NCBI GenBank assembly: GCA_964471385.1
Contig: CAYYFJ010000004.1
Coordinates: 1 to 33,880, forward strand
DNA from: an uncultured Candidatus Saccharibacteria bacterium
GTDB taxonomy: Bacteria > Patescibacteriota > Minisyncoccia > Minisyncoccales > UBA10102
DNA length: 33,880 nt
Direction: 5' to 3'
Within the stretch, counting starts at the first letter, position 1, and each line of letters begins with the position of its first letter. Positions 2,658-32,473 of the stretch are shown piece by piece. The position numbers and the translations under genes are program-made. The notes beneath the pieces were generated by a model that was given only the letters and a program-made list of their open reading frames with translations, did no database searches and was not told the origin of the DNA.

Positions 2658-2712
2658 GAAATGTCAAATTCCAAAACCCAAATGCCAAATGAAATCCAAA
2701 GTTCAAATGACA
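2658..2712 (+). repeat. Left arm of the AAATGYC heptad-word inverted repeat; overlaps the start of the four-helix-bundle gene
   Basis: AAATGTCAAATTCCAAAACCCAAATGCCAAATGAAATCCAAAGTTCAAATGACAAA. By manual alignment about 41/55 positions are complementary to 3061-3114. Confidence 0.8.
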
Positions 2713-3065
2713 AAAAGTATAATTTAGAGGAACGTACGGCAACATTTGGGGAGCACATCATTGAGTTTGCAAAATCATTGCATCAGAATGCAGTTACTGC
2801 GTCGCTGATTAGTCAATTTGTTCGAGCAGGAACAAGCATCGGAGCGAACTACATGGAAGCAGATGGAGCAGAATCAAGAAGTGATTTTAGACATAAGATA
2901 GCGTTATGTAAGAAAGAATCAAAAGAAACGCGGCACTGGATACGAATGATAGCGAAAGCATGTCCCGAAAGTATCGTTGAATGCCGCAAACTTTGGCAAG
3001 AGGCAGATGAACTCACTCTAATATTCTCTTCTATCCTTCGTTCCAAGAAAAGTGAAAAAATTTGA
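2661..3065 (+). CDS. Four-helix-bundle protein (23S rRNA intervening-sequence protein family, Avd-like)
   Basis: 134-aa ORF. The core LEERTATFGEHIIEF...QFVRAGTSIGANYMEA...DFRHKIALCKKESKETRHWIRMI fits PF05635/TIGR02436-type proteins. The first ~17 aa (MSNSKTQMPNEIQSSND) are encoded by the repeat arm. An alternative start is M8 at 2682. Confidence 0.85.
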   Translation: MSNSKTQMPNEIQSSNDKKYNLEERTATFGEHIIEFAKSLHQNAVTASLISQFVRAGTSIGANYMEADGAESRSDFRHKIALCKKESKETRHWIRMIAKACPESIVECRKLWQEADELTLIFSSILRSKKSEKI

Positions 3066-3114
3066 CATTTGGACTTTGACATTCATTTGACATTTGAAAT
3101 TTGAGTTTTGACAT
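3061..3114 (+). repeat. Right arm of the heptad-word inverted repeat (GRCATTT words); contains the stop codon of the four-helix-bundle gene
   Basis: TTTGACATTTGGACTTTGACATTCATTTGACATTTGAAATTTGAGTTTTGACATT. The TGA stop at 3063-3065 is part of the first TTTGACA word. Confidence 0.8.
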
Positions 3115-3123
3115 TAGCGATTG

Positions 3124-3152
3124 TTGACATTCTTTTTATGATAGTGTACAAT
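3124..3152 (+). promoter_or_regulatory. Sigma70-type promoter upstream of rpoB
   Basis: TTGACA (3124-3129), 17-nt spacer, TACAAT (3147-3152). It would give a ~155-nt leader before rpoB. Confidence 0.5.
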
Positions 3153-3312
3153 GCAGTTCAGTGTCTTGGATGACTCTTTCTTTTGTTTCCGCGGACAAAC
3201 CATATCAATATTAAAACGCAAGTTTGACGCCTGCGATTTTTGATAAGCGTTACTAATTCATTTTGCAGACCCTGTTTTTTTGTGCGCCGGGGTCTTTTAA
3301 TGTTTACACGCT

Positions 3313-6688: not shown

Positions 6689-9600
6689 ATGAAAGTTATT
6701 GACCTTGAAGCCATACGCATCAAGTTAGCTTCCCCGGACGACATTCTTTTGTGGTCTCGCGGAGAAGTGACAAAGCCGGAAACCATCAATTACCGCACGC
6801 AGAGGGCTGAAAAAGACGGGCTTTTTGACGAGCGCATTTTCGGTCCCGAAAAAGATTATGAATGCTACTGCGGAAAGTACCGGAAGATACGGTACAAAGG
6901 AGTGGTGTGCGACCGGTGCGGAGTTGAGGTGACCAAGTCCTCCGTCAGAAGGGAGCGCATGGGGCACATCAAACTTGCGACGCCCTGCTCCCATATCTGG
7001 TATTTGCGCGGCATGCCTTCCCGCATGGGCATGGTGCTTGACATTGGGGCGCAAAGCATGGAGCGCGTGATTTATTTTGCCGCGTACATTATCACAAAAG
7101 TGAACGAAGAGGCGAAACAAAAAGCGCAAGAAGACATTGAAAATGAGTTTAAAAAGAAGGTGAGGGGGCTTTCAGACGAAGAAAAGCAAGCCGTAAAAGA
7201 GGCAAAAGACAAGGCAAAGGAAGAGCTCAATTCCGTTGCGCTCCTGCGCATTCTGAGCGAGGCTGAATACCAAAATTTGTCTCTGAAATTCGGACATATT
7301 TTTGAAGCCGGCACCGGATCTGAAACCCTGCGGAAAATTTTTGAGCAGGTTGACCTGAAAAAACTTGTTTCCAAGCTTCGTCCCGATATTGAGCAGGCAA
7401 CTCCCCAGACCAAGCGCCGGCTCATGGTTCGCTTAAAACTGATTCAGTCCATGCACGAGGCGAATGTGCGGCCCGAGTGGATGTTTTTGACCATGCTTCC
7501 CATACTGCCCCCTGATTTGCGGCCTATGGTCCAGTTGGACGGCGGACGGTACGCTTCTTCTGACTTGAACGATTTGTACCGAAGGGTCATCAACCGCAAC
7601 AACCGTTTGAAATATCTGCTGGAAATCGGAGCCCCCGACGTTATCGTGCGCAATGAAAAACGCATGTTGCAAGAAGCCGTGGATGCGCTGATTGACAACA
7701 ACATGAGAAAAGGGACGGTTACGCAGGCGACAACCGGAGGAAAGCGGCTCTTAAAATCGTTGGCCGACATGCTCAAGGGCAAGCAGGGAAGATTCCGCCA
7801 GAACCTGCTCGGAAAGCGCGTGGATTATTCCGGGAGATCGGTGATTGTCGTGGGGCCGGACCTGAACCTTAACCAGTGCGGATTGCCAAAGCGCATGGCG
7901 CTGGAGTTGTTCAAGCCGTTTGTCATCCAAAAGATTTTGGAAAAAGAGCTTGCGTATAATGTGCGGGGAGCTTCGCGTTTGATTGATCTTGAAACGGACG
8001 ATGTCTGGGCGATTTTGGAAGAGGTTGCCAAAGGAAAACTCGTGCTGTTGAATCGCGCTCCCACCCTTCACCGGCTTGGCATTCAGGCGTTTTATCCCGT
8101 GCTTATTGAGGGGGAAGCGATACGTTTGCATCCCTTGGTGTGCAGGGCGTATAACGCGGACTTTGACGGAGACCAGATGGCAGTTCATGTCCCTCTTTCA
8201 GACGAAGCGCAAAAAGAGGCAAGAGAGCTTATGCTTTCTTCTGTGAACCTTTTAAAGCCTGCAACAGGCCAGCCTGTTGTGTCTCCAAATCAGGACGTGG
8301 TGCTCGGATGTTATTATCTGACAGGCCTTGAACCGCAGGAAGAAGCAAAAACCCCGTTGAGATCTTTCAGCTCTCCCGAAGAGGCGGTTCTCGCTCTGGA
8401 ACATGGCGTGATTTTCTTGAGAGAAGTGATAAGGGTGCGGTTGGACGACGGGACGATCATAGAAACAACCGTAGGCCGTCTCATTTTCAACGACTCGCTT
8501 CCCAAAGGATATCTTTTTGTGAACGAGCAGATGAATTCAAAAAAACTGGAGCGGCTTATGGGAGACATGATCCGCAGATATTCGGGGCCTGAAGCCCATG
8601 CGGTTTTGGACCGGATAAAATCTCTCGGATTTGAATACGCGACAAAGTCCGGCATTACATGGGGCATGGACGACCTTGTGGTGCCGCAGGAAAAACACCA
8701 GCTTTTGGCGCAGGCGGAACAAGAGATTGAAACTCTTGACCAGCACTGGTCTCACGGGCTTCTTTCCAAAGAAGAGCGGTCAGCGAAGGTGATTGAAATC
8801 TGGACCCGCGTAAAATCTGCGGTTGAAAAGCTTGTTCCCAAAGCCCTGCCTTTGGGCGGGTCCGTCTTTTCCATTATTGATTCGGGATCCCGGGGTTCCT
8901 GGTCCCAGCCCGTGCAAATGGCGGGAATGAAGGGGCTTGTGATCAACCCTGCCGGGCGCACCATTGAACTTCCCGTCAAAAGCTCGTTTAAAGAAGGATT
9001 CGGCGTGCTTGAGTATTTTATTTCAACGCACGGCGCGCGAAAGGGAACTGCCGACACCGCGCTGAGAACTTCCACCGCAGGGTATCTGACGCGCCGCCTT
9101 ATTGATGTTTCCCACGACATGATTGTAACCGAAGAAGACTGCGGAGACGAGAAAGGAATCACGGTGCTGAAAAAAGAAGCAATGGAACTTGGCCAGAGTC
9201 TTGGCTTGAAAATCGCTGGCCGCATCGCGGCGGAAGCAATCGGCTCTTACGCGAAAAAAGGCCAGATGATTGACTTTGACGTGTTGCAGAAAATTTCAGA
9301 AGACGAAACAGTGCAGGCCTTGAAAATCCGTTCGTCCCTGTCATGTAAAACATTGCATGGCGTGTGTCAAAAATGTTACGGATGGGATTTGGGTTCCAAT
9401 ACTCTTGTCAGTTTGGGATCGGCCGTGGGCATTGTGGCGGCGCAGTCCATCGGAGAGCCGGGAACCCAGCTTACCATGAGGACGTTCCACACGGGAGGAG
9501 TGGCGTCGGCGGGCGACATTACGCAGGGTCTTCCGCGCGTGGAAGAAATTTTTGAAGGCAGAATACCGGGCGGCAAAGCGGCGGTGTCCGAAGTTGAGGG

Positions 9601-10288
9601 CATTGTGGAGGAAATCACCAAAGAGGGCGTTATCAAAGTGCGGGTGCAGAGTTCCGATGCTGAAGATCAAGAAGAGGAAACACCTCAAAAGAGCAAGGGA
9701 CGGGGAAAAAAGAAAAAAGTTTCCCCCGCAAAAACAGGGGATATTGTGGAATACGAGCTTCCGGCAAAGAAAGCCGTGTGGGTTCAGCAGGGGGACATGG
9801 TTTCCAAGGGACAGCAGTTGTGCGAAGGATCCCTTGATTTGAAAGAACTTTTTAAGGTGGCCGGCAAAGAACAGGCGCAAAAGTATGTCGTAAAAGAAGT
9901 GCAAAGAATTTATACCTCGCAAGGGGCCAGCATTCACGACAAACATATTGAAGTGATTACCCGGCAGATGTTTTCCAGAGTCCGCGTCAAAAACAGCGAA
10001 GATACCAGATTTGCGGAAGGAGAGGTGGCGGAACGCGGCACATTTCTTGAAGAAAACGCCCGCGTGAAAAAACTTGGAAAAAAAGGAGCAACGGCAAGCC
10101 AGCTTTTGCTTGGCATCTCCAAAGTCGCGCTGACCACGGAAAGCTTTTTGTCCGCCGCCTCGTTCCAGGAAACATCCCGCGTTCTCATTTCAGCTTCTCT
10201 GGAGGGCAAGGAAGACAAACTGCGCGGCCTGAAAGAGAACGTGATTCTCGGCAAACTGATTCCGGCCGGCACTGGATTTAAAAAATAG
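6689..10288 (+). CDS. rpoC: DNA-directed RNA polymerase subunit beta prime
   Basis: The ORF track opens at 6596, but those first 31 codons translate the spacer repeat. The conserved N-terminus [19 protein letters not shown] starts at ATG 6689. The NADFDGD catalytic motif is present. Confidence 0.95.
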
Positions 10289-10310
10289 AATACGCGAAAC
10301 AAAAACGACA

Positions 10311-10338
10311 AAAAGCGTGCATGCACGCTTTTTGTTTT
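10311..10338 (+). terminator. Rho-independent terminator after rpoC
   Basis: The palindrome AAAAGCGTGCATGCACGCTTTT is followed by TTTTGTTTT, 23 nt after the rpoC stop. Confidence 0.75.
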
Positions 10339-10362: not shown

Positions 10363-12561
10363 ATGGCGAAAGTTAAAAAACACAAACATCTGAAACGCCG
10401 CGAAGATGGAACACCCCGCAGGTTTGGAGGAATTGCGCTTCCTGAAAGCGCTCTGCGCATGATATGGGGGATTGCGATGTTCACCGCCGCGCTTATTTTC
10501 GTGTTTGCGTTTTTTCAGAACGCGGGGATTGCGGGAGATTTTTTTCTTCGCACATTCCAGCTGTTTGTCGGAAAGGCGGCGTTTTTCGCCCCGTTTCTTT
10601 TTGTGCTTGCCGGAGCCGTGTTTTTCGGCATGAGGGAATTTAGCGTGTGGACCGTGTTCGCGACCCTGATTTTTCTGTTAGCTGGCATGAGCGGAATGTT
10701 CGCGGTGGTGGCGCGGGGCAATCATCTTGACATTCAGCAGGTGGCGGGACTTCTTGGATTTGCCGTGTCAGCTCCGATAGTGGGCGCGTTCGGCATCTGG
10801 GTGGGCGGCATCATCCTTGCCGCGACTCTCCTCGCTTCGTTAGCGGTGTTTTGGCATTTGATTGAACACGAGTACAGCGAAGGCTTGGGAGCCGCGGGAG
10901 GCGCGCAGGAAAAAATACGGAAAATTTTTGAGCCGAAGTTTGAGGTAAAAGAGTTAGAGCCCGAGCCTAAAATACGCAATGCCATGAGCGCGGAAGCGGA
11001 GAAGCCGCAGGCTCAAAAAACCGGATCGTCAAAACAAAAGAAATTTGAACCCATTCCCGCAATGGCCGGAGACTACAAGTTTCCCCCGGCCGATCTTTTG
11101 GAAGAGGACAAGGGCATTCCAAACGCGGGAGACATTAAAATTTATTCATCTATTATTAAGAAAACCCTCCAGCATTTTGACATTCCCGTGGAACTTTCAG
11201 AGGTGAACATCGGGCCTGCCGTCACGCAGTACGCCATAAAACCGGCAGAAGGGATTAAGCTTTCGCGCATCACCGCCCTGCAGGCGGATTTGTCTCTGGC
11301 TCTTGCGGCCCATCCCATACGCATTGAAGCTCCAATACCCGGCAGGGCTTTGGTTGGCATTGAAATTCCCAACAAGATCCGCGCCACCGTCAGGTTGCGG
11401 GGGCTCATTGAATCCCAGCCGTTTAAGGAATCGCATTCTTCTCTGCTGATTGCGCTGGGCAAAGATGTTTCAGGAAGCCCCATTTTTACCGACCTTGCGA
11501 AAATGCCCCACATGCTGGTGGCGGGCGCCACGGGATCGGGAAAAACAATCGGGCTGAACAATATTATTTTGAGCCTTGTGTACCGCAATTCTCCAAACAC
11601 CCTCCGGTTTATTCTCGTGGATCCCAAGCGCGTGGAATTCCCCGTGTACAACGACCTTCCCCATTTGCTTACCCCCGTTATTTTGGAGAACCAGAAGGTT
11701 CTTAATGTGTTAAAATGGCTGATCAAAGAAATGGAGCGGCGTTTTCAGGCGCTTTCTCAAGTAAGGGCACGCGACATTGGCAGTTATCATGCGCTGTACA
11801 GGGAAAAAGCAAAAGGAGCGGCGGGCGAGGACGAGTGGGAAACCATGCCCTATATCGTGGTTGTTATTGACGAGTTAGCTGATCTGATGGCTTCGCGCGG
11901 CAAAGAGCTTGAAGGCATGATTGTGCGTTTGGCCCAGATGGCTCGGGCCGTGGGCATTCATCTCGTGCTTGCCACCCAGCGCCCGTCTGTGGAAGTTATC
12001 ACCGGACTTATCAAGGCAAACGTAACCGCGAGAGTCGCTTTTCAGGTCGCTTCGCAGGTGGATTCGCGCACCATTTTGGATTCTGCGGGAGCTGAAAAAC
12101 TGCTGGGGCAGGGGGATATGCTCTTTTTATCCACGGAGTTTTCCAAGCCCAAGCGCGTGCAGGGAGCGTATGTGTCAGACAAAGACGTAAAGAAAGTTGT
12201 CGCTTGGATTGCGCAGGAAAACGAACGCGTGGCGCGCCAGGACATTGAGGAAGACGAGCTCTCTCAAAGCGCCATGGAGGGAATGGAAAATATCGGCGCG
12301 GGAGGGACCTCCGAAGAAGACGATCCGCTGTACGAGGAAGCAAAACATGTGGTTGTGGAGTCCAAGCGCGCGTCAGCTTCCCTTCTTCAGCGCCGTCTAA
12401 AGCTCGGATATGCCAGAGCCGCCCGCCTTCTTGACATGATGGAAGAGCGCGGTGTCGTGGGGCCCGGAGAGGGGGCAAAACCAAGGGAAGTGTATATGAA
12501 ATCGGGTCATGTGGAAGAGGAAGACGGAACCCAAAGCGAGTGGACAAGCCCGAAACTTTAA
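10363..12561 (+). CDS. ftsK: DNA translocase FtsK/SpoIIIE
   Basis: N-terminal TM helices, Walker A GATGSGKT, the VVIDELADLM motif and a C-terminal gamma/winged-helix domain (LLQRRLKLGYARAARLLDMMEERGVVG). The track start at 10321 lies inside the rpoC terminator, so ATG 10363 (MAKVKKHK) is preferred. Confidence 0.9.
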   Translation: MAKVKKHKHLKRREDGTPRRFGGIALPESALRMIWGIAMFTAALIFVFAFFQNAGIAGDFFLRTFQLFVGKAAFFAPFLFVLAGAVFFGMREFSVWTVFATLIFLLAGMSGMFAVVARGNHLDIQQVAGLLGFAVSAPIVGAFGIWVGGIILAATLLASLAVFWHLIEHEYSEGLGAAGGAQEKIRKIFEPKFEVKELEPEPKIRNAMSAEAEKPQAQKTGSSKQKKFEPIPAMAGDYKFPPADLLEEDKGIPNAGDIKIYSSIIKKTLQHFDIPVELSEVNIGPAVTQYAIKPAEGIKLSRITALQADLSLALAAHPIRIEAPIPGRALVGIEIPNKIRATVRLRGLIESQPFKESHSSLLIALGKDVSGSPIFTDLAKMPHMLVAGATGSGKTIGLNNIILSLVYRNSPNTLRFILVDPKRVEFPVYNDLPHLLTPVILENQKVLNVLKWLIKEMERRFQALSQVRARDIGSYHALYREKAKGAAGEDEWETMPYIVVVIDELADLMASRGKELEGMIVRLAQMARAVGIHLVLATQRPSVEVITGLIKANVTARVAFQVASQVDSRTILDSAGAEKLLGQGDMLFLSTEFSKPKRVQGAYVSDKDVKKVVAWIAQENERVARQDIEEDELSQSAMEGMENIGAGGTSEEDDPLYEEAKHVVVESKRASASLLQRRLKLGYARAARLLDMMEERGVVGPGEGAKPREVYMKSGHVEEEDGTQSEWTSPKL

Positions 12562-12653
12562 ATCAAATATCAAAAATCAAACATCAAAATCCAATGGAGA
12601 ATGCAAATTTTACATTTTGATATGTCATTTTTATATTTGATTTTTGATTTTTA
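12560..12653. repeat. AT-rich word hairpin (AAATCAA/ATCAAAA variant) in the ftsK-recA spacer
   Basis: Left arm AAATCAAATATCAAAAATCAAACATCAAAATCC. Right arm CATTTTGATATGTCATTTTTATATTTGATTTTTGATTTT. Complementarity is imperfect. Confidence 0.65.
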
Positions 12654-12663
12654 ATTTTTTACT

Positions 12664-13686
12664 ATGTCAAAGAAAAAACCTGAAAAAATTATAAGCGGCG
12701 ATCTCAAGGAAGCGATTGAAGAGATTAAAGAAAAATTCGGGGAGGGCGCCATTATGAAACTTAGCGATGCCACGAGCATGCAGGTGGAGGCCATACCCAC
12801 AGGTTCTGTTTCCATTGATATGGCGCTTGGAGTCGGGGGCGTGCCGAGAGGCAGGATTATTGAAGTGTACGGGCCCGAAGCATCGGGAAAAACAACGCTT
12901 GCCCTTCATATTCTGGCGCAAGCCCAAAAGGGCGGCGGAGTGGGAGCGTTTATAGACGCGGAGCACGCGCTGGACCCTGATTATGCAAAACGCATTGGAG
13001 TGAATGTGGAGGACCTGCTTATCTCACAGCCGGATTCCGGAGAGCAGGCGCTTGGGATTGTGGAAACCTTGGTGCGTTCGGGCGAGGTTGATGTGATTGT
13101 GGTGGATTCCGTGGCGGCTCTCACTCCGAGAAATGAAATTGCGGGAGAAATGGGAGAATTCCAGATAGGCCTGCAGGCGAGGTTGATGTCTTCCGCCTTG
13201 CGCAAGCTTTCCGCGATTGTAGCCAAAACAAAAACTTGCGTTATTTTTCTCAACCAGATACGCATGAAAATCGGCGTGATGTTCGGAAATCCGGAAACAA
13301 CGCCGGGAGGGCTTGCGTTGAAATTCTACGCTTCCGCGCGCATTGAATTAAGAAGAATAGCTCAAATCAAGCACGGGGAACAGATTACGGGATCCCGCGT
13401 GAGAGCAAAAATAGTGAAAAACAAAGTTGCTCCTCCTTTCCAAACCACAGAGTTTGATATTTATTACAACGAAGGAATTTCTTATGCGGCCGATCTCGTG
13501 AACGCCGGCCTTAAAGAGGGGATTTTGCAAAAATCAGGATCGTGGATTCAGTTTGAAGAAACAAAAATCGGCCAGGGCATGGAAGGGGCGCGGGCATTTT
13601 TGAAAGAGAACTTGCAAACTGCAGAGCAAATAAGGCAAAAGCTCTTTGAGCGCGCCCGCGTCTCTCTGCAAAAACAGAAAGAATGA
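12664..13686 (+). CDS. recA: Recombinase RecA
   Basis: 340-aa ORF with [12 protein letters not shown] Walker A and the typical RecA core ([18 protein letters not shown]). Confidence 0.97.
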
Positions 13687-13688
13687 GT

Positions 13689-13889
13689 TCAGTCCTTAGA
13701 AATGTGAGAGAGGAGCCCGATGTGGCGCGCCACTTTCACGGCCTTCGCGACTTTGCGCTGGTGAGTCGCGCACAAGCTTGTTTTTTCTTTGGACCTTATT
13801 TTTCCGAGACCGGAAAGGTAACGCCTAAGAATTTGCGTGTCTTTATGGTCAACTTCCTGAATATTTTTTTTGCAAAAATAGCAATCCAT
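13689..13889 (-). CDS. rpsR: 30S ribosomal protein S18
   Basis: 66-aa ORF (CYFCKKNIQEVDHKDTQILRRYLS...IRSKEKTSLCATHQRKVAKAVKVARHIGLL) in rpsF-ssb-rpsR synteny. Confidence 0.9.
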   Translation of the reverse strand: MDCYFCKKNIQEVDHKDTQILRRYLSGLGKIRSKEKTSLCATHQRKVAKAVKVARHIGLLSHISKD

Positions 13890-13898
13890 ATTTTACGT

Positions 13899-13984
13899 AA
13901 TGTCAAATGTCAAAATCCAAATGTCAAATGAATGTTTAAAATCCAAATACTCATTTGACATTTGAGCTTTGGCATTTGGATTTT
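13899..13984. repeat. AAATGYC heptad-word inverted repeat (hairpin) between ssb and rpsR
   Basis: Left arm AATGTCAAATGTCAAAATCCAAATGTCAAATGAATG. Right arm CATTTGACATTTGAGCTTTGGCATTTGGATTTT. The first 37 nt are identical to 32362-32398. Confidence 0.85.
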
Positions 13985-14471
13985 AGAAGGGGATATCTTT
14001 CACGTCAATTTCTTCGTCCTCCTCAATAATGGGAATTTCTTCCACCGATTCCTCTTTTGTCTCTTTTTGCTGGGGCGTTGTTTTGTTGTCCGCCTGAGGG
14101 GCGCGCCCCTCTTCTTTCACAAACGGGACCGATCCGCCTTCGCTTCCTTTGGGCCCTAACTGCAGGCGCTCTGCGATAATTTCGGTGCGGTATTTTTTTA
14201 CGCCTTGGGCGTCCTGCCATGATCGCGTTTCAATTCTTCCCTCCACATACACCAAGGACCCCTTCCTTAAATATTGGGACGCGATTTCGCCAAGCCGTCT
14301 CCATGCGATGACCGTATGGAATTCGGCTTTTGATTGCCTCTGATTGCCAGCGTCCGTCCACACCCTGTTTGTTGCCACGCGCAGATTGCACACGGTCTGA
14401 CCCGAAGGGGTTGAGCGCGTTTCAGGGGTGTCCACCACCCGCCCTATGAGCATGACTTTGTTTAAATCCAT
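13983..14471 (-). CDS. ssb: Single-stranded DNA-binding protein
   Basis: 162-aa ORF with an OB-fold N-terminus (MLIGRVVDTPETR...FHTVIAWRRLGE) and an acidic C-terminal tail ending DIPF. Confidence 0.95.
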   Translation of the reverse strand: MDLNKVMLIGRVVDTPETRSTPSGQTVCNLRVATNRVWTDAGNQRQSKAEFHTVIAWRRLGEIASQYLRKGSLVYVEGRIETRSWQDAQGVKKYRTEIIAERLQLGPKGSEGGSVPFVKEEGRAPQADNKTTPQQKETKEESVEEIPIIEEDEEIDVKDIPF

Positions 14472-14480
14472 AGTTTACCT

Positions 14481-14573
14481 AATGCCAAATATCAAAATCC
14501 AAAATCTCAATACTCATTTGACATTTGAACTTTAGATTTCATTTGACATTTGAGTTTTGGCATTTGGATTTTT
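14481..14573. repeat. AAATGYC heptad-word inverted repeat between rpsF and ssb
   Basis: Left arm AATGCCAAATATCAAAATCCAAAATCTCAATACT. Right arm CATTTGACATTTGAACTTTAGATTTCATTTGACATTTGAGTTTTGGCATTTGGATTTTT. Confidence 0.85.
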
Positions 14574-14578
14574 CAAAC

Positions 14579-15004
14579 CTAGGTTTCCTTGAAGATTTCT
14601 TCCAGCTTTTTGTCAATCTCGCCGATGTCCACCGGTTTTTCCTGTTCTTTTGCGATAGCGACGGGCTCTTGAAGAGCTGGCGGTTGAATGGCGGGGGACT
14701 GCTTTAATTTTCTGCTTTGTTTTGCCGGAGCTTCCATAATCATACTTCGGATCGCCGAGGATTCCCCGTTTACCCGTTTTTTCAGCGTTTCTATATTGTC
14801 GGGGCTGAACGAAAATGTAAGCGCGGCAAGCATGGCTTCTTTATTTTTTCCGGATCCGTGGAATGCCTTTTTACCCTTGATTTCCTGCGTTTCAAGCAAG
14901 CCTCCCTGATCTTGGATAAAAGAAACAAGCGCCCCCAAAAGATCAAGCAGGGCCGCTTCTTCAATCGCCGGATTCAACAGCAGATTTAACTCGTATCGTT
15001 TCAT
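14579..15004 (-). CDS. rpsF: 30S ribosomal protein S6 (divergent, with C-terminal extension)
   Basis: 141-aa ORF. The N-terminus MKRYELNLLLNP and the ...AIRSMIM motif are S6-like. It sits at the head of the rpsF-ssb-rpsR cluster. Confidence 0.75.
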   Translation of the reverse strand: MKRYELNLLLNPAIEEAALLDLLGALVSFIQDQGGLLETQEIKGKKAFHGSGKNKEAMLAALTFSFSPDNIETLKKRVNGESSAIRSMIMEAPAKQSRKLKQSPAIQPPALQEPVAIAKEQEKPVDIGEIDKKLEEIFKET

Positions 15005-15078
15005 GGTCTTTTTGTATCATAATTGCCTTTGTGCGTCAACCATTCCGTCGGGATAGAAAATGTGCTATCCTCTTCATT

Positions 15079-16491: not shown

Positions 16492-16559
16492 CAAGTTTTT
16501 TTGCGAGCAAGTTTTTTCCGATCTCTCGCGGTCGCATGCGCGCCGATCTATGTTTCTTA

Positions 16560-17546: not shown

Positions 17547-17568
17547 ATAATGAATAACCAACAAATTT

Positions 17569-17622
17569 AAATATCAAAATCCAAATAGCCAATTTGACAT
17601 TTGAACTTTGGATTTTGGATTT
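17569..17622. repeat. Short AAATGYC-family hairpin between RNase J and trpS
   Basis: AAATATCAAAATCCAAATAGCC / AATTTGACATTTGAACTTTGGATTTTGGATTT. Confidence 0.75.
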
Positions 17623-17630
17623 ATATTTTA

Positions 17631-19334: not shown

Positions 19335-19347
19335 ATTTTTTAATTAG

Positions 19348-19434
19348 TGGTGCCCGGAGGGAGAGTTGAACTCCCAAGGGCTTGCGCCCACAGCGCCCTG
19401 AACGCTGCGTGTTTGCCAATTTCACCACCCGGGC
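19348..19434 (-). tRNA. tRNA-Leu (anticodon CAG), class II, CCA encoded
   Basis: The reverse complement folds by hand: acceptor GCCCGGG/TCCGGGC, anticodon stem CAGCG/CGCTG with loop TTCAGGG, long variable arm, T-arm GGGAG TTCAACT CTCCC, discriminator A plus CCA. Confidence 0.9.
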
Positions 19435-19442
19435 ATTGAGCT

Positions 19443-21539
19443 TCATTTGACATTTGGACTTTGGATTTCATTTGGCATTTGAGCTTTGGCATTTGGATTT
19501 TTCCATATTCTCCCTGTTCTTATATACCAGTCTGCAATGCCGGAGAACCTTTGGGAGGGGTCGGCGATTATCTGCTCTGTAATGCCGCGAATGTCGTCTG
19601 CCGCAATGTACACATAGTGGGTGTCATACAGAAAAATCGCGGGAATATCCTGCAGAAGCACATTCTGAAATTCTTCCAGTTTTTTATTTCTTGCTTCTTC
19701 GTCCAATTCTTTTCTTGCGGATTCAAGCAAAGCATCCGCTTTTTTATTTTCATATCCTGAAAGATTGAGCCCGGGATCCCGCTTTTGCGAGGAATGCCAG
19801 AAGGGAAACAAATCGGGTATTTTCCCGAGAATTTCTCCGAACAACAGCATCTGGAAATTTCTTGGTTTTATCACGTCGTGCTCAAGATCGGAAGGAGAGT
19901 ATGCTTGAACCTCCGCTTGAATGCCAAAATCTTTCCACTGGCCTGCGATTGCTTCCGCGATATCAAGCAGGGGCGGCTGGTTTACGGTCGCAATGCTCAC
20001 GCTCAGAGGAAGATTTTCTCGGCTTGTAAAGCAAAGCATGTTGAGTTTTTCTCTTGTCGCTCCCGCGACTTTTCCCGTGCCCTTGTTCAGCCCTTGGGGA
20101 GCCAGAATATCGTCCGCGTATTTTTCCTGGAAACGAATCACCGCTTCTTTGGTTGCCGCGTCAAACGTTCCAGAAATTTTTCCCGACGGATAGAGTTCCG
20201 CGTCTTTCGCGAGGCACTCCTGCAGTTTTTTCACGTCCGCGCTTTTATTTCCCTGAACCAGCGTGCTTTGTATGCCGTCCCCGCTTTTTTTTGCGGGAGG
20301 AAACCACATTCCATTCTCTTTTTTGTATCCTTTTGACAGCAGAATGCGCTCCGCGCGCTCAGTGTTTTTTGTCTGCAGGAGCGCCGGCTCTGCCAGTTTA
20401 AAAATGCCGGGCAATGCGGGGGACGAGACAATGCGGCCATGGTTTTTCAATATCGCGCTTGTCAAAGCTTCTTTGTCAATTGAGTCTGCGAGCGCCTGGC
20501 GCATGTCCCGCGACTTCACAATGTCCTGATCGTTCAGGGAGTTCAGGTTGAAAAAAATGGCAAAGTATCTTGGCAAAGAGAACGAATACACATTCAGCCC
20601 GTCTGTTTTTACCCGCTGGATATCCTGCACGGAGTGGATGGAAAAAACGTCCAGCAGTCCCTGGTTTGCCGCCGCGATCAGTTCTTTTTCATCGGGAAAA
20701 AAGCGGAACGCAGTTGACTGAATGTATGGTTTTTTCCCGTAGTATTCTTTGAATCCGCGCAGCCGAATTTCTTTGATTGCTCCCGTGCGTTCCTGGCTTA
20801 TGCCAGATACCCGGTACGGCCCCGTTCCCACAGGCTCAAGATTGTACATAGAAAGCGCGAAGTTCTCCGGAGCTACGGATTTCCAGATGTGAGAGGGAAG
20901 AATTTTGAGCGTGAGCCGTTCTAAAAACGGAGCGTAAGGTTCTTTGAGCTCAAAGCGGACACGATCATTTGTGATTTTTTCAGCCCTCACGCCAATCCAG
21001 TTCGTGCGTATGGGGCTTTTGTATTTTGGGTTCTGCACGGTTTCCACCGTGAAGATTACATCGTCTGCCGTGAACGGTTTTCCATCATGCCACACCGCTT
21101 CTTCTCTGAGGTTGAATTCAATCACCTTTCCTCCCTCTTCCACGGTGAAATCTTTTGCCAGATCCGGGACCAGCTTTCCCGCGTTGTCGTATGTAAGCAG
21201 TCCCGAATACACAAGCTGGACAAGATCGCGGTCTGCATCGTACGCATCCGCGTACAAGGGGTTGATATACCGTGGAAAGCCGACAATTCCTTCTGTGAAC
21301 GATCCCCCCTGCACGGGAATTTCTCTTGTGCTTGCGATGTACAGCCGTCCCAAAAGAAACGTGAAAGACGCGACAGACAGCGCAAGAAACAAAGAAAACA
21401 GTATTCTCTCTTTTTTTGACAACACAGATGGAAATTTTTTCCACTGGGCAAAGGTAGGAAATCTCTTTCCTTCTTTTAACTCGCCGTATTGTCTTTGTAA
21501 TTGTTTAATCCAGTCTTTCGCCTGTTGAAACGTAAACAC
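19443..21539 (-). CDS. Family-5 (peptide/nickel type) ABC substrate-binding protein with N-terminal membrane anchor and inserted peptidoglycan-binding-like domain
   Basis: 698-aa ORF with a GTG start. It has an SBP_bac_5-like core and a PG_binding_1-like segment (ADVKKLQECLAKDAELYPSGKISGTFDAATKEAVIRFQEKY). The last 19 codons are encoded by the heptad repeat. Confidence 0.75.
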   Translation of the reverse strand: MFTFQQAKDWIKQLQRQYGELKEGKRFPTFAQWKKFPSVLSKKERILFSLFLALSVASFTFLLGRLYIASTREIPVQGGSFTEGIVGFPRYINPLYADAYDADRDLVQLVYSGLLTYDNAGKLVPDLAKDFTVEEGGKVIEFNLREEAVWHDGKPFTADDVIFTVETVQNPKYKSPIRTNWIGVRAEKITNDRVRFELKEPYAPFLERLTLKILPSHIWKSVAPENFALSMYNLEPVGTGPYRVSGISQERTGAIKEIRLRGFKEYYGKKPYIQSTAFRFFPDEKELIAAANQGLLDVFSIHSVQDIQRVKTDGLNVYSFSLPRYFAIFFNLNSLNDQDIVKSRDMRQALADSIDKEALTSAILKNHGRIVSSPALPGIFKLAEPALLQTKNTERAERILLSKGYKKENGMWFPPAKKSGDGIQSTLVQGNKSADVKKLQECLAKDAELYPSGKISGTFDAATKEAVIRFQEKYADDILAPQGLNKGTGKVAGATREKLNMLCFTSRENLPLSVSIATVNQPPLLDIAEAIAGQWKDFGIQAEVQAYSPSDLEHDVIKPRNFQMLLFGEILGKIPDLFPFWHSSQKRDPGLNLSGYENKKADALLESARKELDEEARNKKLEEFQNVLLQDIPAIFLYDTHYVYIAADDIRGITEQIIADPSQRFSGIADWYIRTGRIWKNPNAKAQMPNEIQSPNVK
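19444..19502. repeat. Single (unpaired) GRCATTT arm of the heptad-word family, overlapping the 3' end of the SBP gene
   Basis: CATTTGACATTTGGACTTTGGATTTCATTTGGCATTTGAGCTTTGGCATTTGGATTTTT. I saw no opposing arm. It abuts tRNA-Leu. Confidence 0.8.
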
Positions 21540-21578
21540 TGTGCGAGATTTTTAGTTGTTGTAAAAGCAACAGCGCAA

Positions 21579-21656
21579 AGTATCCAGTATTGAGTATGCA
21601 GTATGCAGTATTCAGTATTCAGTATGCAGAATACTCTATACTGTATACTGAATACT
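21579..21656. repeat. Hairpin made of tandem CAGTATK heptamers and their complement
   Basis: AGTATCCAGTATTGAGTATGCAGTATGCAGTATTCAGTATTCAGTATGCAG followed by AATACTCTATACTGTATACTGAATACT. The right arm is about 23/27 complementary to 21586-21612. Confidence 0.8.
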
Positions 21657-21661
21657 AGAGT

Positions 21662-21904
21662 TCAGAAGCGGAGACTTGCTATAGAGAGTCCCGCGAAAAG
21701 AATCAAGAGAACAATGGTTGCCCAGAAAAGTTTTTCCTGAATACCCCTTCTTGTCGCGTAAAATCCGCTGTCTCCCCCCATGCCCAAACCCAAAGCGGTT
21801 CCCCTTTGCTGAAGAAGAATGGCAATAATCATGAGTGTGGCAGTTCCGATTTGGGCAATCGTCAAATACGTCATTGGAAACAAGAGAAAAAAGTTCAATC
21901 TCAA
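21662..21904 (-). CDS. secG: Preprotein translocase subunit SecG
   Basis: Two-TM small protein with ILLQQRGTALGLGMGG, the typical SecG loop. The true start may be M11 (21874). Confidence 0.75.
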   Translation of the reverse strand: MRLNFFLLFPMTYLTIAQIGTATLMIIAILLQQRGTALGLGMGGDSGFYATRRGIQEKLFWATIVLLILFAGLSIASLRF

Positions 21905-21907
21905 GAG

Positions 21908-22255
21908 TTATCTTCGCGCGCCCATCCTTCCAAAAAACGAGAGCACAATGCTTATGGCGGATACCGCGACTGCGGTCCAGACCATTGGCATTGTTCCTTT
22001 CACGGAAAATTCAGGGAAGAAAAGGCCCAACAGCCAGATTAACCCTATGCTTACTCCTATAAGCACAATGAGCCGAAAGATAAAAGTAATGAGGTTTAAA
22101 AGGGGACGGAGAAACGCGAGCACCAAGCCAAGCGCGGCTCCGGCAATCAGAAATATCTTCAGGGAACCGGTGAATTGGACCCCCTCAATGTAATGGCTTG
22201 CGACCCACAAACCAACAATGCCTCCCACAATGTCAAACAAAAGTATTGTGAGCAT
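21908..22255 (-). CDS. DUF360 / phage-holin-4_2 family membrane protein
   Basis: 115-aa protein with four TM segments. The pattern WVASHYIEGVQFTG...LRPLLNLITFIF...GLFFPEFSVKG resembles PF04020 members. Confidence 0.7.
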   Translation of the reverse strand: MLTILLFDIVGGIVGLWVASHYIEGVQFTGSLKIFLIAGAALGLVLAFLRPLLNLITFIFRLIVLIGVSIGLIWLLGLFFPEFSVKGTMPMVWTAVAVSAISIVLSFFGRMGARR

Positions 22256-22312: not shown

Positions 22313-22323
22313 CATGCCCTGCG

Positions 22324-22357
22324 CGGGGTCAGACCCCATCAACGGGGTCTGACCCCG
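22324..22357 (-). terminator. GC-rich twin palindrome (CGGGGTCAGACCCC-N6-GGGGTCTGACCCCG) downstream of uvrC
   Basis: It can form a 13-bp stem with a 6-nt loop, 14 nt after the uvrC stop. There is no clear U-tract. It contains two GGTCNGACC cores. Confidence 0.55.
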
Positions 22358-22370
22358 CGGGTCGCGCAGG

Positions 22371-24535: not shown

Positions 24536-24563
24536 ATTATACCCTTGCAACGTCCAAAGTCAA
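24536..24563 (-). promoter_or_regulatory. Sigma70-type promoter for the small membrane ORF
   Basis: On the minus strand: TTGACT (24558-24563), 16-nt spacer, TATAAT (24536-24541). Confidence 0.55.
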
Positions 24564-24569
24564 GCGACT

Positions 24570-24607
24570 GGTCAAGGTCCGACCTTGGCCAAGGTCCGAC
24601 CTTGACC
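24570..24607. repeat. 38-nt near-perfect palindrome with two AAGGTCCGACCTT units, in the divergent promoter region
   Basis: GGTCAAGGTCCGACCTTGG|CCAAGGTCCGACCTTGACC. The halves are reverse complements except at the central base of each unit. Confidence 0.9.
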
Positions 24608-24675
24608 ACTGCCTTGCGGGAAGCGTTTGCCATCGGTTGAAATTTTTGGGCAGATTGGGATATGTCTCTATACCA

Positions 24676-28580: not shown

Positions 28581-28607
28581 TTAGCAGTCAATGTGCTGGA
28601 CTGCTAG
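28581..28607 (+). promoter_or_regulatory. CIRCE-like inverted repeat (putative HrcA operator)
   Basis: TTAGCAGTC-N9-GACTGCTAG compared with the CIRCE consensus TTAGCACTC-N9-GAGTGCTAA. It lies between the promoter and groES. Confidence 0.75.
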
Positions 28608-28663
28608 CCGTTTAATACTATTTATAGCTAATCATAACTAAAGGTTCTTATCATTCAAAGCGT

Positions 28664-28957: not shown

Positions 28958-28958
28958 T

Positions 28959-29069: not shown

Positions 29070-29070
29070 A

Positions 29071-30699
<1,629 letters not shown>

Positions 30700-30771
30700 A
30701 CATTGTTGTCATGACAATGTTTAGTCCTGAGCGTGGTTGAAGGACTCCTTTTTCAATAGGATAAAAAGCGC

Positions 30772-30806
30772 AAACCCGGCTTCAATGAACCGGGTTTGTG
30801 TTTTTT
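30772..30806 (+). terminator. Rho-independent terminator after groEL
   Basis: AAACCCGG-loop-CCGGGTTT followed by GTGTTTTTT. Two weaker hairpins precede it (30696-30722 and 30724-30745). Confidence 0.8.
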
Positions 30807-30817
30807 AGAGATTATCG

Positions 30818-30826
30818 TGGTATAAT
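30818..30826 (+). promoter_or_regulatory. Extended -10 promoter element (TGgTATAAT) upstream of lemA
   Basis: TGGTATAAT lies at 30818-30826, 40 nt before the lemA ATG. Confidence 0.5.
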
Positions 30827-30866
30827 AACGGTGTTTATAAATAATAAAGAATAAAGAACAAAAACC

Positions 30867-31421
30867 ATGAATACTTTTACAATTATTTTGGCCGCGTTCG
30901 GCGTTTTGGTTGCATGGGTTGTGCTTGCGTTTAACCGCCTTATTGCTTTGCGCAATCGCGTCAAGGAAGCGTTTGCCGACATTGAAGTGCAGTTAAAAAG
31001 GCGCTATGACATGGTTCCTAACCTTGTGAACACGGTGCAGGGATACGCGGCGCATGAGAGAGGAGTATTTGAGAAAGTGACAGAAGCAAGAGCAAAGGCA
31101 ATGGGCGCGACAAGCGTGGGAGATCGCGCGCAGGCGGAGAATATGCTCTCGCAAACCTTGAAAAGTCTGTTCGCGGTCGCGGAAAATTATCCCGACCTCA
31201 AAGCGTCCGACCGTTTTGGCCAGCTCATGGAGGAATTGCGGGACACGGAAGACAAAATTCAGGCGGCCCGCAGATTTTACAATACCAATGTGCTTGCGCT
31301 GAACACAGGGACGGAAACATTCCCGGCAAATCTTGTCGCCGGTTCGTTTGGGTTTAAGAAGGAAGCGTTTTTTGAAATTGAAGAACCTGCCGAACGCCAA
31401 GCCCCCAAAGTCAATTTCTAA
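30867..31421 (+). CDS. lemA: LemA family protein
   Basis: 184-aa ORF with an N-terminal TM helix and LemA-typical blocks (QLKRRYDMVPNLV, AENYPDLKA, ARRFYN). Confidence 0.9.
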   Translation: MNTFTIILAAFGVLVAWVVLAFNRLIALRNRVKEAFADIEVQLKRRYDMVPNLVNTVQGYAAHERGVFEKVTEARAKAMGATSVGDRAQAENMLSQTLKSLFAVAENYPDLKASDRFGQLMEELRDTEDKIQAARRFYNTNVLALNTGTETFPANLVAGSFGFKKEAFFEIEEPAERQAPKVNF

Positions 31422-31455
31422 TTTTCAATAATCAATTTTCAATAATTGAAAATTG
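31421..31455. repeat. AT-rich word hairpin in the lemA-htpX spacer
   Basis: Direct repeat ATTTTCAATAAT x2. A perfect 10-bp inverted repeat, CAATTTTCAA-TAA-TTGAAAATTG (31433-31455), ends 1 nt before the htpX ATG. Confidence 0.75.
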
Positions 31456-31456
31456 C

Positions 31457-32362
31457 ATGACGCTTTATTCTTATGCTGAATCCAACATCCGCAAAACGTG
31501 GCTGTATCTGGCAGGGTTTTTTGTCCTGCTGATTGGTTTGGGCTGGCTATTCAGCGCTTACTACAAGAGTCCAACGATTCTGTGGTTCGCGGTTTTGTTG
31601 AGCACGGCCATGAGCGTGGCGTCGTATTGGTTTTCAGATTCCATAGCGCTTTCCATGAGCGGAGCAAAGCCGATTAAAAAGGAAGACAATCCCGAGCTGT
31701 ACCGCATTGTGGAAAATCTTGCCATAACCGCGGGCCTTCCCACACCTGCTGTTTTCATTATTAATGATGCCCAACCCAATGCGTTTGCAACCGGCCGCGA
31801 TCCAAAGCACGCGGTGGTTGCCGTAACGACAGGACTATTGGAGCGATTGGAACGCGCGGAGCTTGAAGGAGTCATCGCGCACGAGTTTGCGCATATCGGA
31901 AACCGCGATGTTCTGCTTGCAACCGTTATTGTGGTTCTGGTCGGCATTGTCGCTTTATTGTCTGATTTCTTTTTCCGCATCACATGGTATGGCGGAAGGG
32001 GGCGTTCGCGCGACGACAACCGGGGACAGCTTGGCGTTCTATTGCTTGTCGTGTCCATTGTTGCCGCGATTGTAGCTCCGCTTGCCGCGAACCTGATAAA
32101 GCTTGCGATTTCGCGCAAGCGCGAGTTTTTAGCAGACGCTTCGGGCGCGCTTTTGACGCGGTATCCCGAGGGGCTTGCAAAGGCGCTGGAGAAAATATCC
32201 GCATTTTCCGGCCAATTGCGCGCCGCAAACCACGCGACCGCGCACTTGTACATTGCCAGCCCTTTTCGCGGCAAAGAATCCGTGGGCTGGTTTCAAAAGC
32301 TGTTCACGACCCACCCGCCCATTGCAGAGCGCATTGCCGCCCTCAGAGGAATGAAGATATAA
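31457..32362 (+). CDS. htpX: M48 family zinc metalloprotease HtpX
   Basis: 301-aa ORF with TM helices, the HEFAH zinc motif (IAHEFAHIGNRD) and C-terminal THPPIAERI. Confidence 0.92.
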   Translation: MTLYSYAESNIRKTWLYLAGFFVLLIGLGWLFSAYYKSPTILWFAVLLSTAMSVASYWFSDSIALSMSGAKPIKKEDNPELYRIVENLAITAGLPTPAVFIINDAQPNAFATGRDPKHAVVAVTTGLLERLERAELEGVIAHEFAHIGNRDVLLATVIVVLVGIVALLSDFFFRITWYGGRGRSRDDNRGQLGVLLLVVSIVAAIVAPLAANLIKLAISRKREFLADASGALLTRYPEGLAKALEKISAFSGQLRAANHATAHLYIASPFRGKESVGWFQKLFTTHPPIAERIAALRGMKI

Positions 32363-32473
32363 ATGTCAAATGTCAAAATCCAAATGTCAAATGAATGTCA
32401 AAGCTCAAAGTCAAAATAGCCCATTTGCCCATTTGTACTTTATTTGAAATTTGATATTGAGATTTTGGATTTA
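32361..32473. repeat. AAATGYC heptad-word inverted repeat between htpX and the zinc-ribbon gene
   Basis: Left arm AAATGTCAAATGTCAAAATCCAAATGTCAAATGAATGTCAAAGCTCAAAGTCAAAATAGCC. Right arm CATTTGCCCATTTGTACTTTATTTGAAATTTGATATTGAGATTTTGGATTT. Confidence 0.85.

Follow-up and report, generated by a model that had tools for sequence, protein, structure and literature searches.

Intervening sequences (IVSs) of 23S rRNA genes that carry an open reading frame (ORF) have been suspected of being mobile since the early 1990s. The protein family PF05635 is named after them as '23S rRNA intervening-sequence protein', and also includes Avd, the accessory protein of diversity-generating retroelements (DGRs). 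The Coxiella IVS is 428 nt long, with terminal inverted repeats that form a 28-bp stem and an ORF for an S23p (PF05635) protein; tandem GACAGAT heptamers, whose number varies between strains, lie ahead of the start codon, and the first heptamer is the site of RNase III cleavage in the stem (PMC4990558). The ORF has been proposed to serve the long-suspected mobility of these IVSs, and S23p of Xanthomonas is described as a homopentameric toroid (PMC4990558). Short tandem units are also known from intergenic regions: heptamer repeats of the TAACTGA type occur patchily in Beggiatoaceae, Cyanobacteria and Bacteroidetes 'with no mechanism evident' (PMC4679880), and paired tandem hepta- or octanucleotide arrays on opposite strands of Geobacter metallireducens were annotated as 'global regulator binding sites' (PMC2700814). 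Here, we analysed a stretch of 33,880 nt (contig CAYYFJ010000004.1, assembly GCA_964471385.1; hereafter the window) from an uncultured bacterium deposited as Candidatus Saccharibacteria, in which inverted arrays of 7-nt words recur between genes. With a probability of roughly 60%, these loci are copies of a small selfish insertion element, composed of a PF05635 gene framed by inverted word arms and accompanied by miniature or truncated derivatives, that spreads horizontally.

The words of the family are 7 nt long and have a constant CAAA (or TTTG) core and three variable bases. Runs of at least three such cores at 6-8 nt spacing were observed 16 times in the window, compared with a mean of 0.435 and a maximum of 3 in 200 first-order Markov simulations, and a 22-nt degenerate pattern of the family matched four times, compared with 0.00 in 100 dinucleotide shuffles; the only runs outside the loci in Table 1 are a few short ones in coding sequence, which were read as chance. 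An earlier sequence-only reading of this DNA had proposed a genuine dispersed family rather than generic AT-rich low complexity, and these controls bear it out, with the vocabulary present far above chance at every position it had listed and with ATCAAAN as the variant word of the locus at 12560. It had counted eight separate inverted-repeat loci. Words were found at all of them, but 2658-2712 and 3061-3114 proved to be the two arms of one 455-nt element; six loci fold beyond shuffles (z -2 to -7), while 19444-19502 is a lone arm that has no partner and does not fold above shuffles. The AGTATKC hairpin at 21578-21660 had been left out of that set. In total, the 34 kb of the window carry seven members of the CAAA/TTTG family, including the ATCAAAN variant, and one copy of the other word set.

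As had also been claimed, the elements occupy the whole spacer between stop and start codon, on either coding strand, and their stems can pair in several registers, multiple inverted-repeat pairings having been found in the repeat search. On either strand, each hairpin presents CAAA-words on its 5' side and TTTG-words on its 3' side. Each copy begins on or no more than about 6 nt from the upstream stop codon: the first word of E7 is fused with the stop TAA, that of E3 overlaps the ssb stop codon TAA, and E2 begins on the ftsK stop TAA and ends 6 nt ahead of the recA ATG. As the spacers are so short, this adjacency may stem from survivorship and not from targeting. An NCBI metagenome-assembled genome (MAG, GCA_016188285.1) and five Logan contigs (together L001-L006) contain the region of the window with 99.6-100% identity. 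The elements at 2660-3115 and 12560-12657 are unchanged in these independent assemblies of the same population, and they are therefore no assembly artefacts.

Table 1. Word-array elements of the window and parts of E1; z, folding score of the locus against 200 dinucleotide shuffles, + strand / - strand (for E1, with the arms joined). SBP, solute-binding protein.
Feature	Position	Strand	z	Description
E1	2660..3115	+	-8.6 / -9.8	Full gene-bearing element, 455 nt: left arm, PF05635 gene, right arm
E1 left arm	2660..2714	+		CAAA-cored heptad words; candidate starts ATG 2661 and 2682; encodes N-terminus MSNSKTQMPNEIQSSNDKK
Four-helix-bundle gene	2661..3065	+		PF05635 23S_rRNA_IVP, TIGR02436; 127-134 aa (database start 2682 = 127 aa)
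E1 right arm	3061..3115	+		TTTG-cored words; covers the last codons and stop of the gene
E2	12560..12657		-2.0 / -5.7	Gene-less hairpin of ATCAAAN words filling the ftsK-recA spacer; arms 31 nt, 87% complementary
E3	13899..13984		-7.1 / -6.3	Gene-less hairpin between ssb (13983-14471, minus) and rpsR (13689-13889, minus); arms 34 nt, 82% complementary
E4	14481..14573		-3.7 / -3.9	Gene-less hairpin between rpsF (14579-15004, minus) and ssb
E5	17569..17622		-3.5 / -3.1	Short gene-less hairpin between RNase J (17631-19334, minus) and trpS (16560-17564, minus)
E6	19444..19502	-	-1.9 / -0.2	Lone arm at the stop codon of the SBP gene, abutting tRNA-Leu (19348-19434)
E7	32361..32473		-2.9 / -3.0	Gene-less hairpin between M48 peptidase (31457-32362) and zinc-ribbon gene (32481-33011)
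E8	21578..21660		-4.6 / -4.5	Hairpin of like architecture with a different word, AGTATKC / GMATACT, between secG (21662-21904, minus) and the SBP gene; arms 19-20 nt, 90-95% complementary

The two arms of E1 (55 nt each) are 78% complementary, and in a 476-nt RNA both the minimum free energy and the centroid structures pair them as one long interrupted stem around the ORF (z = -3.1). The encoded protein matched Pfam PF05635 with E = 1.1e-13 and 51.7 bits (cutoff 33.8), TIGR02436 ('four helix bundle protein') with 69.3 bits (cutoff 24), and PDB entry 2RLD with E = 2.3e-12. About 19 codons at the start of this gene lie within the left arm, and its last few codons within the right arm. On one side, the element adjoins the stop codon of a tetratricopeptide repeat (TPR) gene ending at 2656, and on the other the rpoB promoter, a sigma-70-type TTGACA-17-TACAAT (~3124-3152) read from the sequence, which has a similar counterpart upstream of rpoB in relatives. 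The arms of E3, E4, E6 and E7 are colinear with those of E1 (the long arm of E4 with the left arm of E1), and the left arms of E7 and E3 are identical over ~36 nt.

An exhaustive search with the E1 protein returned 7,109 related clusters at 50% identity, including 27 at E <= 1e-30. There are ~2,900 word-sharing relatives, the best 120 of which are 64-76% identical, and the named homologues among these 120 come from MAGs labelled Nitrospirae, Proteobacteria, Actinobacteria and Patescibacteria. In all 23 homologues inspected, the N-terminus MSNxKAQMSNEIQSSNDKK (with variants) is encoded by the left arm. At the DNA level, the gene is flanked by the same CAAA-word left arm and TTTG-word right arm in four unrelated contexts with GC contents of 35-50% (L007, L011, L012 and L015), where it is co-oriented within operons, e.g. 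between T2SSE and T2SSF or between a histidine kinase and a response regulator. Gene-less hairpins with the same vocabulary lie near two of these genes (L007, 8641-8748; L015, 4127-4231).

The window was then set against four Candidatus Wildermuthbacteria loci (L161-L164, RecA 79-81% identical), the nearest relatives compared, all of which keep the order rpoB-rpoC-ftsK-recA-rpsR-ssb-rpsF-...-trpS-rnj-tRNA-SBP-secG-...-uvrC-uvrA. The ftsK-recA spacer, which holds E2 and measures 102 nt in the window, is 24-30 nt and hairpin-free in all four relatives, and so is the rpsF-ssb spacer of E4 (11-21 nt, compared with 107 nt in the window). The trpS-rnj spacer of E5 (66 nt in the window) is reduced to 1-4 nt in L161 and L162 and is 69 nt long and hairpin-free in L164, and the SBP-secG spacer of E8 (122 nt) measures 4-6 nt in L163 and L161 and 55-96 nt, without such words, in L164 and L162. 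Upstream of rpoB, there is no such insert in L161 and L164, and no four-helix-bundle gene precedes rpoB in the relatives. The SBP of the window ends ...RIWK-NPNAKAQMPNEIQSPNVK*, with an 18-aa tail encoded by an arm, whereas its counterparts stop at that point (...WK*, ...PK*, ...AR*), indicating that E6 replaced a stop codon and is translated. A further junction is given by L012 and L013: directly after the TGA stop of a response-regulator gene, one genome has a 730-nt arm-gene-arm unit and the other has three bases. As most of the orthologous spacers in the relatives are hairpin-free, the hairpins of the window are regarded as lineage-specific insertions, with two of them (E3 and E4) inside rpsF-ssb-rpsR. 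No length variation of the elements was seen in the window's own population.

Two of the relatives carry arrays of their own. The trpS-RNase J spacer of L163 contains a cassette with CGAAATN-word arms, a PF05635 gene and an ORF of 169 aa without a family match, on a contig that also encodes a Y1-transposase/RAYT-like protein (7553-8566 and 21-725), and a TTTG/CAAA-type hairpin is present in the rpsR-ssb spacer of L164, the site of E3, suggesting that such spacers were hit repeatedly or, in the case of L164, that the hairpin may be inherited. Heptad arrays of CAATTGA and CAAAAGT words also occur inside called ORFs of L164. The array within rpoC (7095-7186) is translated in frame (...QATIDNLQLTIDKKNSRQKSKVKSQES...), and the same words form arrays inside the called uvrC ORF (19594-19672 and 20345-20436).

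To follow the family beyond the window, one genome per species was scanned with a 29-nt degenerate arm pattern; the figures below refer to the matches listed and are lower bounds. At least 118 stretches were found in at least 70 assemblies, which belong by their labels to about a dozen phyla: Thermodesulfobacteriota / Deltaproteobacteria, Omnitrophota, Planctomycetota, Nitrospirota, Actinomycetota, Chloroflexota, Latescibacterota, Stahlbacteria, Aminicenantia, Gammaproteobacteria / Pseudomonadota and several lineages of the candidate phyla radiation (CPR). The expectation that the family has further copies outside the window was thereby confirmed. A total of 109 paired hairpins were detected in these loci, and no adjacent gene of the E1 subfamily accompanied 122 of the 124 matches. 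Contrary to the sequence-only reading, which saw no defined termini, oriented copies align to a single consensus of ~115 nt with ~7 words per arm, a short T-rich loop and the termini AATGTCAAA...TTTGACATT, which E1 (2660-3115) shares. Each arm contains a conserved irregular 11-nt module in its middle (CAAATGAATGTCAAA or CAAATGAAATCCAAA; in the other arm GGATTTGATTTGACA). Copies are more similar within genomes than between them (similarity 0.52 vs 0.38, p = 6e-12), which fits amplification or homogenisation within lineages. The gene motif that spans the stop codon is kept in 17 of 112 gene-less copies; it belongs to the innermost words of the right arm and so is alone no proof of an origin by internal deletion.

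With genes called by a simple longest-ORF heuristic, hairpins in these loci lie between co-directional genes in 84 cases, convergent genes in 12 and divergent genes in three, and one is intragenic. Divergent spacers are depleted (3/69 occupied, compared with 73/561 of the others; Fisher p = 0.047). The pattern-bearing arm lies on the coding strand in 49 copies and on the opposite strand in 34 (p = 0.12), and the gene-less copies are thus roughly orientation-neutral; gene-bearing copies are co-oriented with their neighbours in ~12 of 14 clear cases, the exceptions being L094 and a Calothrix plasmid. A search of viral contigs with the looser 22-nt pattern gave 27 matches, of which all except L017 were coding sequence matched by chance; there is thus no clear sign that phages carry the element. 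Some copies form part of larger structures. In MAGs labelled Desulfobacteraceae, Anaerolineales and Pseudomonadota (L048 1530-1860, L061, L067 and L073), a hairpin lies inside a larger conserved unit that had no Rfam match and looks like a composite repeat; L048 and L073 have a loop cargo of ~110 nt and both flanks in common, and L061 shares the upstream flank and left arm only. Nested hairpins were seen in L057 (5330-5470), L066 (1300-1560) and L053 (310-560), as a CAAA/TTTG hairpin within GTAGGCA / TGCCTAC arms or as a hairpin of other words in the loop.

The association between arrays and PF05635 genes extends to other word sets. A hidden Markov model search of ~960 kb of loci found 13 distinct genes of the TIGR02436 type, the window gene included, and the flanks of 12 of them (window and 11 others) were inspected together with those of three cyanobacterial plasmid genes, which had been retrieved by tblastn of plasmids at E <= 1e-3 (nothing at E <= 1e-8). 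An automated duplex test of the flanks was unreliable for arms lying within a called ORF, and such flanks were judged by reading the sequence. Short-word arrays were present on both flanks of 14 of the 15 genes, each with its own word set: AGAGCAN in L012 (second gene), AATTATG / ATTGATA in L011 (second gene), GGTACAN in L060, AGTAGCN in L094, CTAAGCA / TTTAGGA in L119, CGTATCT in L132, CGAAATN in L163, AGCTAAN on the Calothrix plasmid, GGGAAAA on a Nostoc plasmid, and direct AAAAGCT / AAAAGCC arrays on a Pseudanabaena plasmid. More distant representatives often have N-terminal extensions that resemble translated word arrays. Among the loci examined, the word set of E8 (AGTATKC) had no match, and that of E2 matched only L001, from the window's own population, and L069. 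The Pseudanabaena galeata gene (L166, plasmid NZ_CP112875.1, 46268-46627), with its long (AAAAGCT)n and (AAAAGCC)n flanks, lies between cas6 and cas4. '23S rRNA IVP' is reported as statistically associated with adaptation modules of CRISPR systems (PMC10910872), and insertions like this one could contribute to that association.

Taken apart, the claims that make up our reading differ in strength. We have high confidence that a discrete, horizontally shared insertion element exists in a PF05635-bearing form and in miniature derivatives, and moderate confidence that its movement takes place at the DNA level, the word arrays serving as terminal recognition sequences. In the proposed mechanism, the element would spread horizontally and be amplified within genomes at the DNA level, and its arms would act as terminal repeats or single-strand hairpins recognised through their repeated words by a trans-acting factor. 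The obvious candidate for this factor is the element-encoded four-helix-bundle protein, a putative nucleic-acid-binding protein, and it is plausible that it reads the words. In transcripts, the arms are predicted to pair as they do in the ORF-bearing 23S rRNA IVSs with their RNase III cuts. By analogy, a cut of the stem by RNase III is plausible here too and would help the element to be tolerated in essential operons, as a consequence that makes insertions tolerable and not as a host function. The gene-less copies, made of two arms back to back or of truncated single arms, would be analogous to miniature inverted-repeat transposable elements (MITEs).

Several points weigh against this reading. 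E1 encodes no ORF besides the four-helix-bundle protein and no transposase, integrase or reverse transcriptase, and domains of these three kinds were likewise absent from the scanned ORFs of the window; to our knowledge, a helical bundle of 127 aa has no catalytic activity. By eye, neither the aligned termini nor the junction between L012 and L013 showed an evident target-site duplication; the exact ends are blurred by the variable number of words. The hairpin of L164 could mean shared ancestry at the site of E3, and with a RecA identity of only 79-81%, deletion in several lineages would be an alternative to insertion, although an unlikely one. RNase III processing is extrapolated from the rRNA IVSs, and the link between protein and words may be one of co-inheritance only. 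The phylum labels are those of MAGs or bins; three of the matches listed lie on closed chromosomes, which speaks against contamination as the sole explanation. Closed genomes with the family include CP066689.1 (Roizmanbacteria), CP070673.1 and CP070770.1.

Among the alternatives, the one that survives best, and which we regard as possible but doubtful, is that the word array and not the stem is functional. A ring-shaped oligomer of the four-helix-bundle protein would bind tandem heptads on single-stranded RNA or DNA, much as the trp RNA-binding attenuation protein (TRAP) binds GAG repeats, thereby autoregulating its translation and affecting the genes beside gene-less copies; this would be compatible with mobility. 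The arms of E1 do cover the start and stop codons of their own gene, the CAAA/TTTG cores are invariant and the three variable bases show no covariation, the word set shifts with the protein subfamily, and the arrays of the Pseudanabaena gene are direct instead of inverted. Avd, a homologue, binds a reverse transcriptase as well as nucleic acid, and the nearest solved structure, 2RLD, has five chains on record. The toroid described for Xanthomonas S23p is homopentameric (PMC4990558). However, most arms have 6-7 words and not five, and co-inheritance of arm and gene accounts for the match between words and subfamily without any recognition. Complementarity between the two arms of one element does not exceed that with arms of different copies (in fact, it is weaker), which fits an array that is read as such, but this comparison is biased, as elements were ascertained through a match to one arm and the two arms differ systematically, and it is taken as uninformative about selection.

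A wider extension of these ideas, which we consider rather improbable, would have the PF05635 proteins, Avd and the IVS proteins among them, serve as trans-acting factor for a very large unrecognised class of mobile cassettes that lack a transposase. An oligomer would read the heptad words on single-stranded nucleic acid and recruit a host or co-resident enzyme, e.g. a DGR-type reverse transcriptase priming on hairpin RNA, to copy the cassette and its miniatures beside stop codons. If true, the 23S IVSs, the short tandemly repeated repetitive (STRR) and other heptamer repeats of cyanobacteria, the TAACTGA repeats and the 'regulator sites' of Geobacter would be products of one mechanism.

Selection for a host regulatory RNA, i.e. 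a terminator, an attenuator or a stem that stabilises or processes mRNA, is unlikely. Such a role would suit hairpins that lie downstream of genes in transcribed spacers, near the start codons of the genes that follow, that avoid divergent spacers and that fold better than shuffles. Yet the hairpins are missing from most of the same spacers in the four relatives, which often measure just 4-30 nt, and the same sequence recurs in many phyla. RNAalifold of 21 copies gave a consensus energy of only -3.67 kcal/mol, and its covariation term (+0.65) was unfavourable; the consistent pairs are confined to the invariant CAAA/TTTG cores, and at variable positions broken pairs are about as frequent as compensated ones. 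In the co-directional copies (n = 72), both strands fold equally well (sense vs antisense, -31.4 vs -32.1 kcal/mol, p = 0.33), with no advantage of the sense strand and hence none of the G-U signature that selection for RNA structure on the transcribed strand would leave. Conservation lies in the sequence of each arm, and since compensatory change is lacking, 'hairpin' denotes a geometry here and not a demonstrated function. E2-E6 and E8 were not among the terminator-like sites (G+C-rich stem and T run) found in 12000-22000, and E3-E5 sit between genes of one operon or direction; ordinary terminators with a GC-rich stem and a T run follow rpoC (10310-10338) and groEL (30762-30807) in this genome. 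Rfam gave no family match in the window.

Still less likely are repetitive extragenic palindromic (REP) elements or REP doublets forming hairpins (REPINs) that are moved by a REP-associated tyrosine transposase (RAYT), with the four-helix-bundle gene as an occasional passenger. Bertels and Rainey are said to have described REPINs in 2011 as inverted doublets of ~100 nt that form hairpins and are extragenic, which resembles the gene-less copies, and the L163 contig encodes a Y1-transposase/RAYT-like protein, although it scored below the cutoff (REP_Tyr_transpos, 39.7 bits against 80) and is not beside the arms. No Y1 transposase was found among the scanned ORFs of the window, the gene between the arms is consistently a PF05635 gene, and the arms are tandem words instead of a single palindrome of 20-30 nt. 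REPIN-RAYT systems are, moreover, vertically inherited and lineage-specific, whereas the sequence studied here crosses phyla. Finally, slippage or template switching in AT-rich spacers would be expected to yield tandem 7-nt units with multiple registers, and the heptamer number of Coxiella does vary between strains (PMC4990558), but by-products of this kind, without any discrete element, are very improbable given the single ~115-nt consensus, 11-nt module and defined termini common to at least 70 genomes, the constant length in the window's own population, and 16 word runs where 0.4 were expected.

The window itself is a segment of a compact bacterial chromosome (GC content 45-53%), and the identical and nearest RecA proteins carry the database name Candidatus Wildermuthbacteria (Parcubacteria, CPR). 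Its genes are, in order, the TPR protein, E1, rpoB, rpoC, ftsK, recA, rpsR-ssb-rpsF (minus strand), phosphoglucomutase, trpS, RNase J, tRNA-Leu, SBP, secG, a holin-like protein, uvrC, uvrA, groES/EL, LemA, the M48 peptidase, the zinc-ribbon protein and tRNA-Ser. A longer plus-strand ORF at 13683-13931 was rejected as spurious and runs into a hairpin arm (its product ends ...NVKCQNPNVK*); the true gene, on the minus strand, is rpsR for ribosomal protein S18 (66 aa; Ribosomal_S18, E = 6e-20), which places 13899-13984 within the rpsF-ssb-rpsR operon and not between convergent genes. The right half of E2, just upstream of recA, contains a promoter-like TTTACA-17-TATATT (12609-12637, 10/12 match), and TTGACA, the -35 consensus, is included in the right-arm word TTTGACA; in sequence so rich in AT, either may have arisen by chance.

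Other features of the window are outside the heptad family or concern its assembly. In L001, the NCBI MAG, 67 nt corresponding to window 10241-10307 are missing near position ~10340, which removes the end and stop codon of rpoC and alters the rpoC and ftsK calls; rpoC is intact in the window and followed by the canonical terminator at 10310-10338. A 31-nt palindrome with 87% self-complementarity (CAAGCGACTGGTCAAGGTCCGACCTTGGCCA..., 24561-24616) in the divergent 260-nt spacer upstream of uvrA could be an operator. A perfect 16-bp GC-rich inverted repeat (CGCGGGGTCAGACCCC / GGGGTCTGACCCCGCG, 22322-22359) lies in the spacer between uvrC and the holin-like gene. Lastly, a small ORF with a GIY-YIG domain (33078-33362, 94 aa), which adjoins tRNA-Ser (33348-33435) or overlaps it, may be the remnant of a homing-endonuclease-like gene.

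One cause may underlie three puzzles, namely the origin of the IVSs, the function of the 'four helix bundle protein' with its 7,109 clusters, and the heptamer repeats that cross phyla. The window presents a clean case, a reduced CPR genome in which insertions are tolerated both within rpsF-ssb-rpsR and directly upstream of the promoter of rpoB. For annotation, the arms generate spurious ORFs and protein tails (the ORF at 13683-13931 and the 18-aa tail of the SBP), and the conserved-looking N-terminus of PF05635 proteins is really repeat DNA. Arms may also mislead calls that rest on guilt by association, as for a PF05635 gene between cas6 and cas4.

Compared with the described repeat systems, the elements share with the STRR repeats of cyanobacteria, the TAACTGA type and the Geobacter arrays the intergenic tandem units of 7 nt, the patchy occurrence over distant phyla (PMC4679880) and the pairing of arrays (PMC2700814), and the cyanobacterial plasmid genes of PF05635 are likewise flanked by heptamer arrays. 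Those repeats differ in consisting mostly of identical units in direct arrays that are read as regulator sites, whereas the words described here are degenerate and make up the inverted arms of a discrete element. A term search of both texts (PMC4679880 and PMC2700814) found no mention of PF05635 genes, and a full-text literature search, of incomplete coverage, found no description of an association between PF05635 genes and heptad arrays. Unlike CRISPR arrays, which have repeats of 24-40 nt with unique spacers, the units here are 7 nt, contiguous, degenerate and arranged in inverted arms. REP elements, bacterial interspersed mosaic elements (BIMEs) and the REPIN-RAYT systems resemble the gene-less copies as imperfect palindromic doublets of ~100 nt that are extragenic, often follow stop codons and reach many copies per genome, but no RAYT is linked in the window, and the word-array arms, the sharing across phyla and the four-helix-bundle cargo set the element apart.

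The likeness to MITEs is closer. Gene-less copies share the arms of a gene-bearing copy (E3, E4, E6 and E7 with E1, and similarly in L007 and L015), are dispersed between genes, outnumber the gene-bearing form (122 of the 124 matches listed), are present or absent at orthologous sites, and can be nested (L057 and L066). They differ from MITEs in that the gene-bearing partner has no recognisable transposase, no target-site duplication is evident by eye, and the terminal repeats are arrays of 7-nt words. E1, in turn, resembles the ORF-bearing 23S rRNA IVSs of Leptospira, Coxiella, Xanthomonas and Brucella in size (455 nt, compared with 430-760 nt; PMC4990558), in encoding a PF05635 / TIGR02436 protein within terminal inverted repeats that pair as a stem, and in having 7-nt words in its left arm (2660-2714), as the heptamers of Coxiella also lie on the 5' side, by or overlapping the start codon. 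In both, the ORF has the same orientation as the host transcript, its Shine-Dalgarno sequence is poor or absent, and the sporadic distribution suggests horizontal transfer. In contrast to the IVSs, which are located in helix 25 or 45 of 23S rRNA, the copies described here are found between protein-coding genes or at their ends, no rRNA being present in the window (Rfam) or in 13 related loci; the element also has many gene-less miniature copies, and its arms consist wholly of degenerate words. All structural features are thus shared except the location in rRNA, for which reason E1 is not filed as an IVS. The sequence-only reading knew of no named class that fits these repeats, and this no longer holds: the gene-bearing copy, with its PF05635 / TIGR02436 gene, matches the architecture of the ORF-bearing 23S rRNA IVSs, and the gene-less copies are MITE-like.

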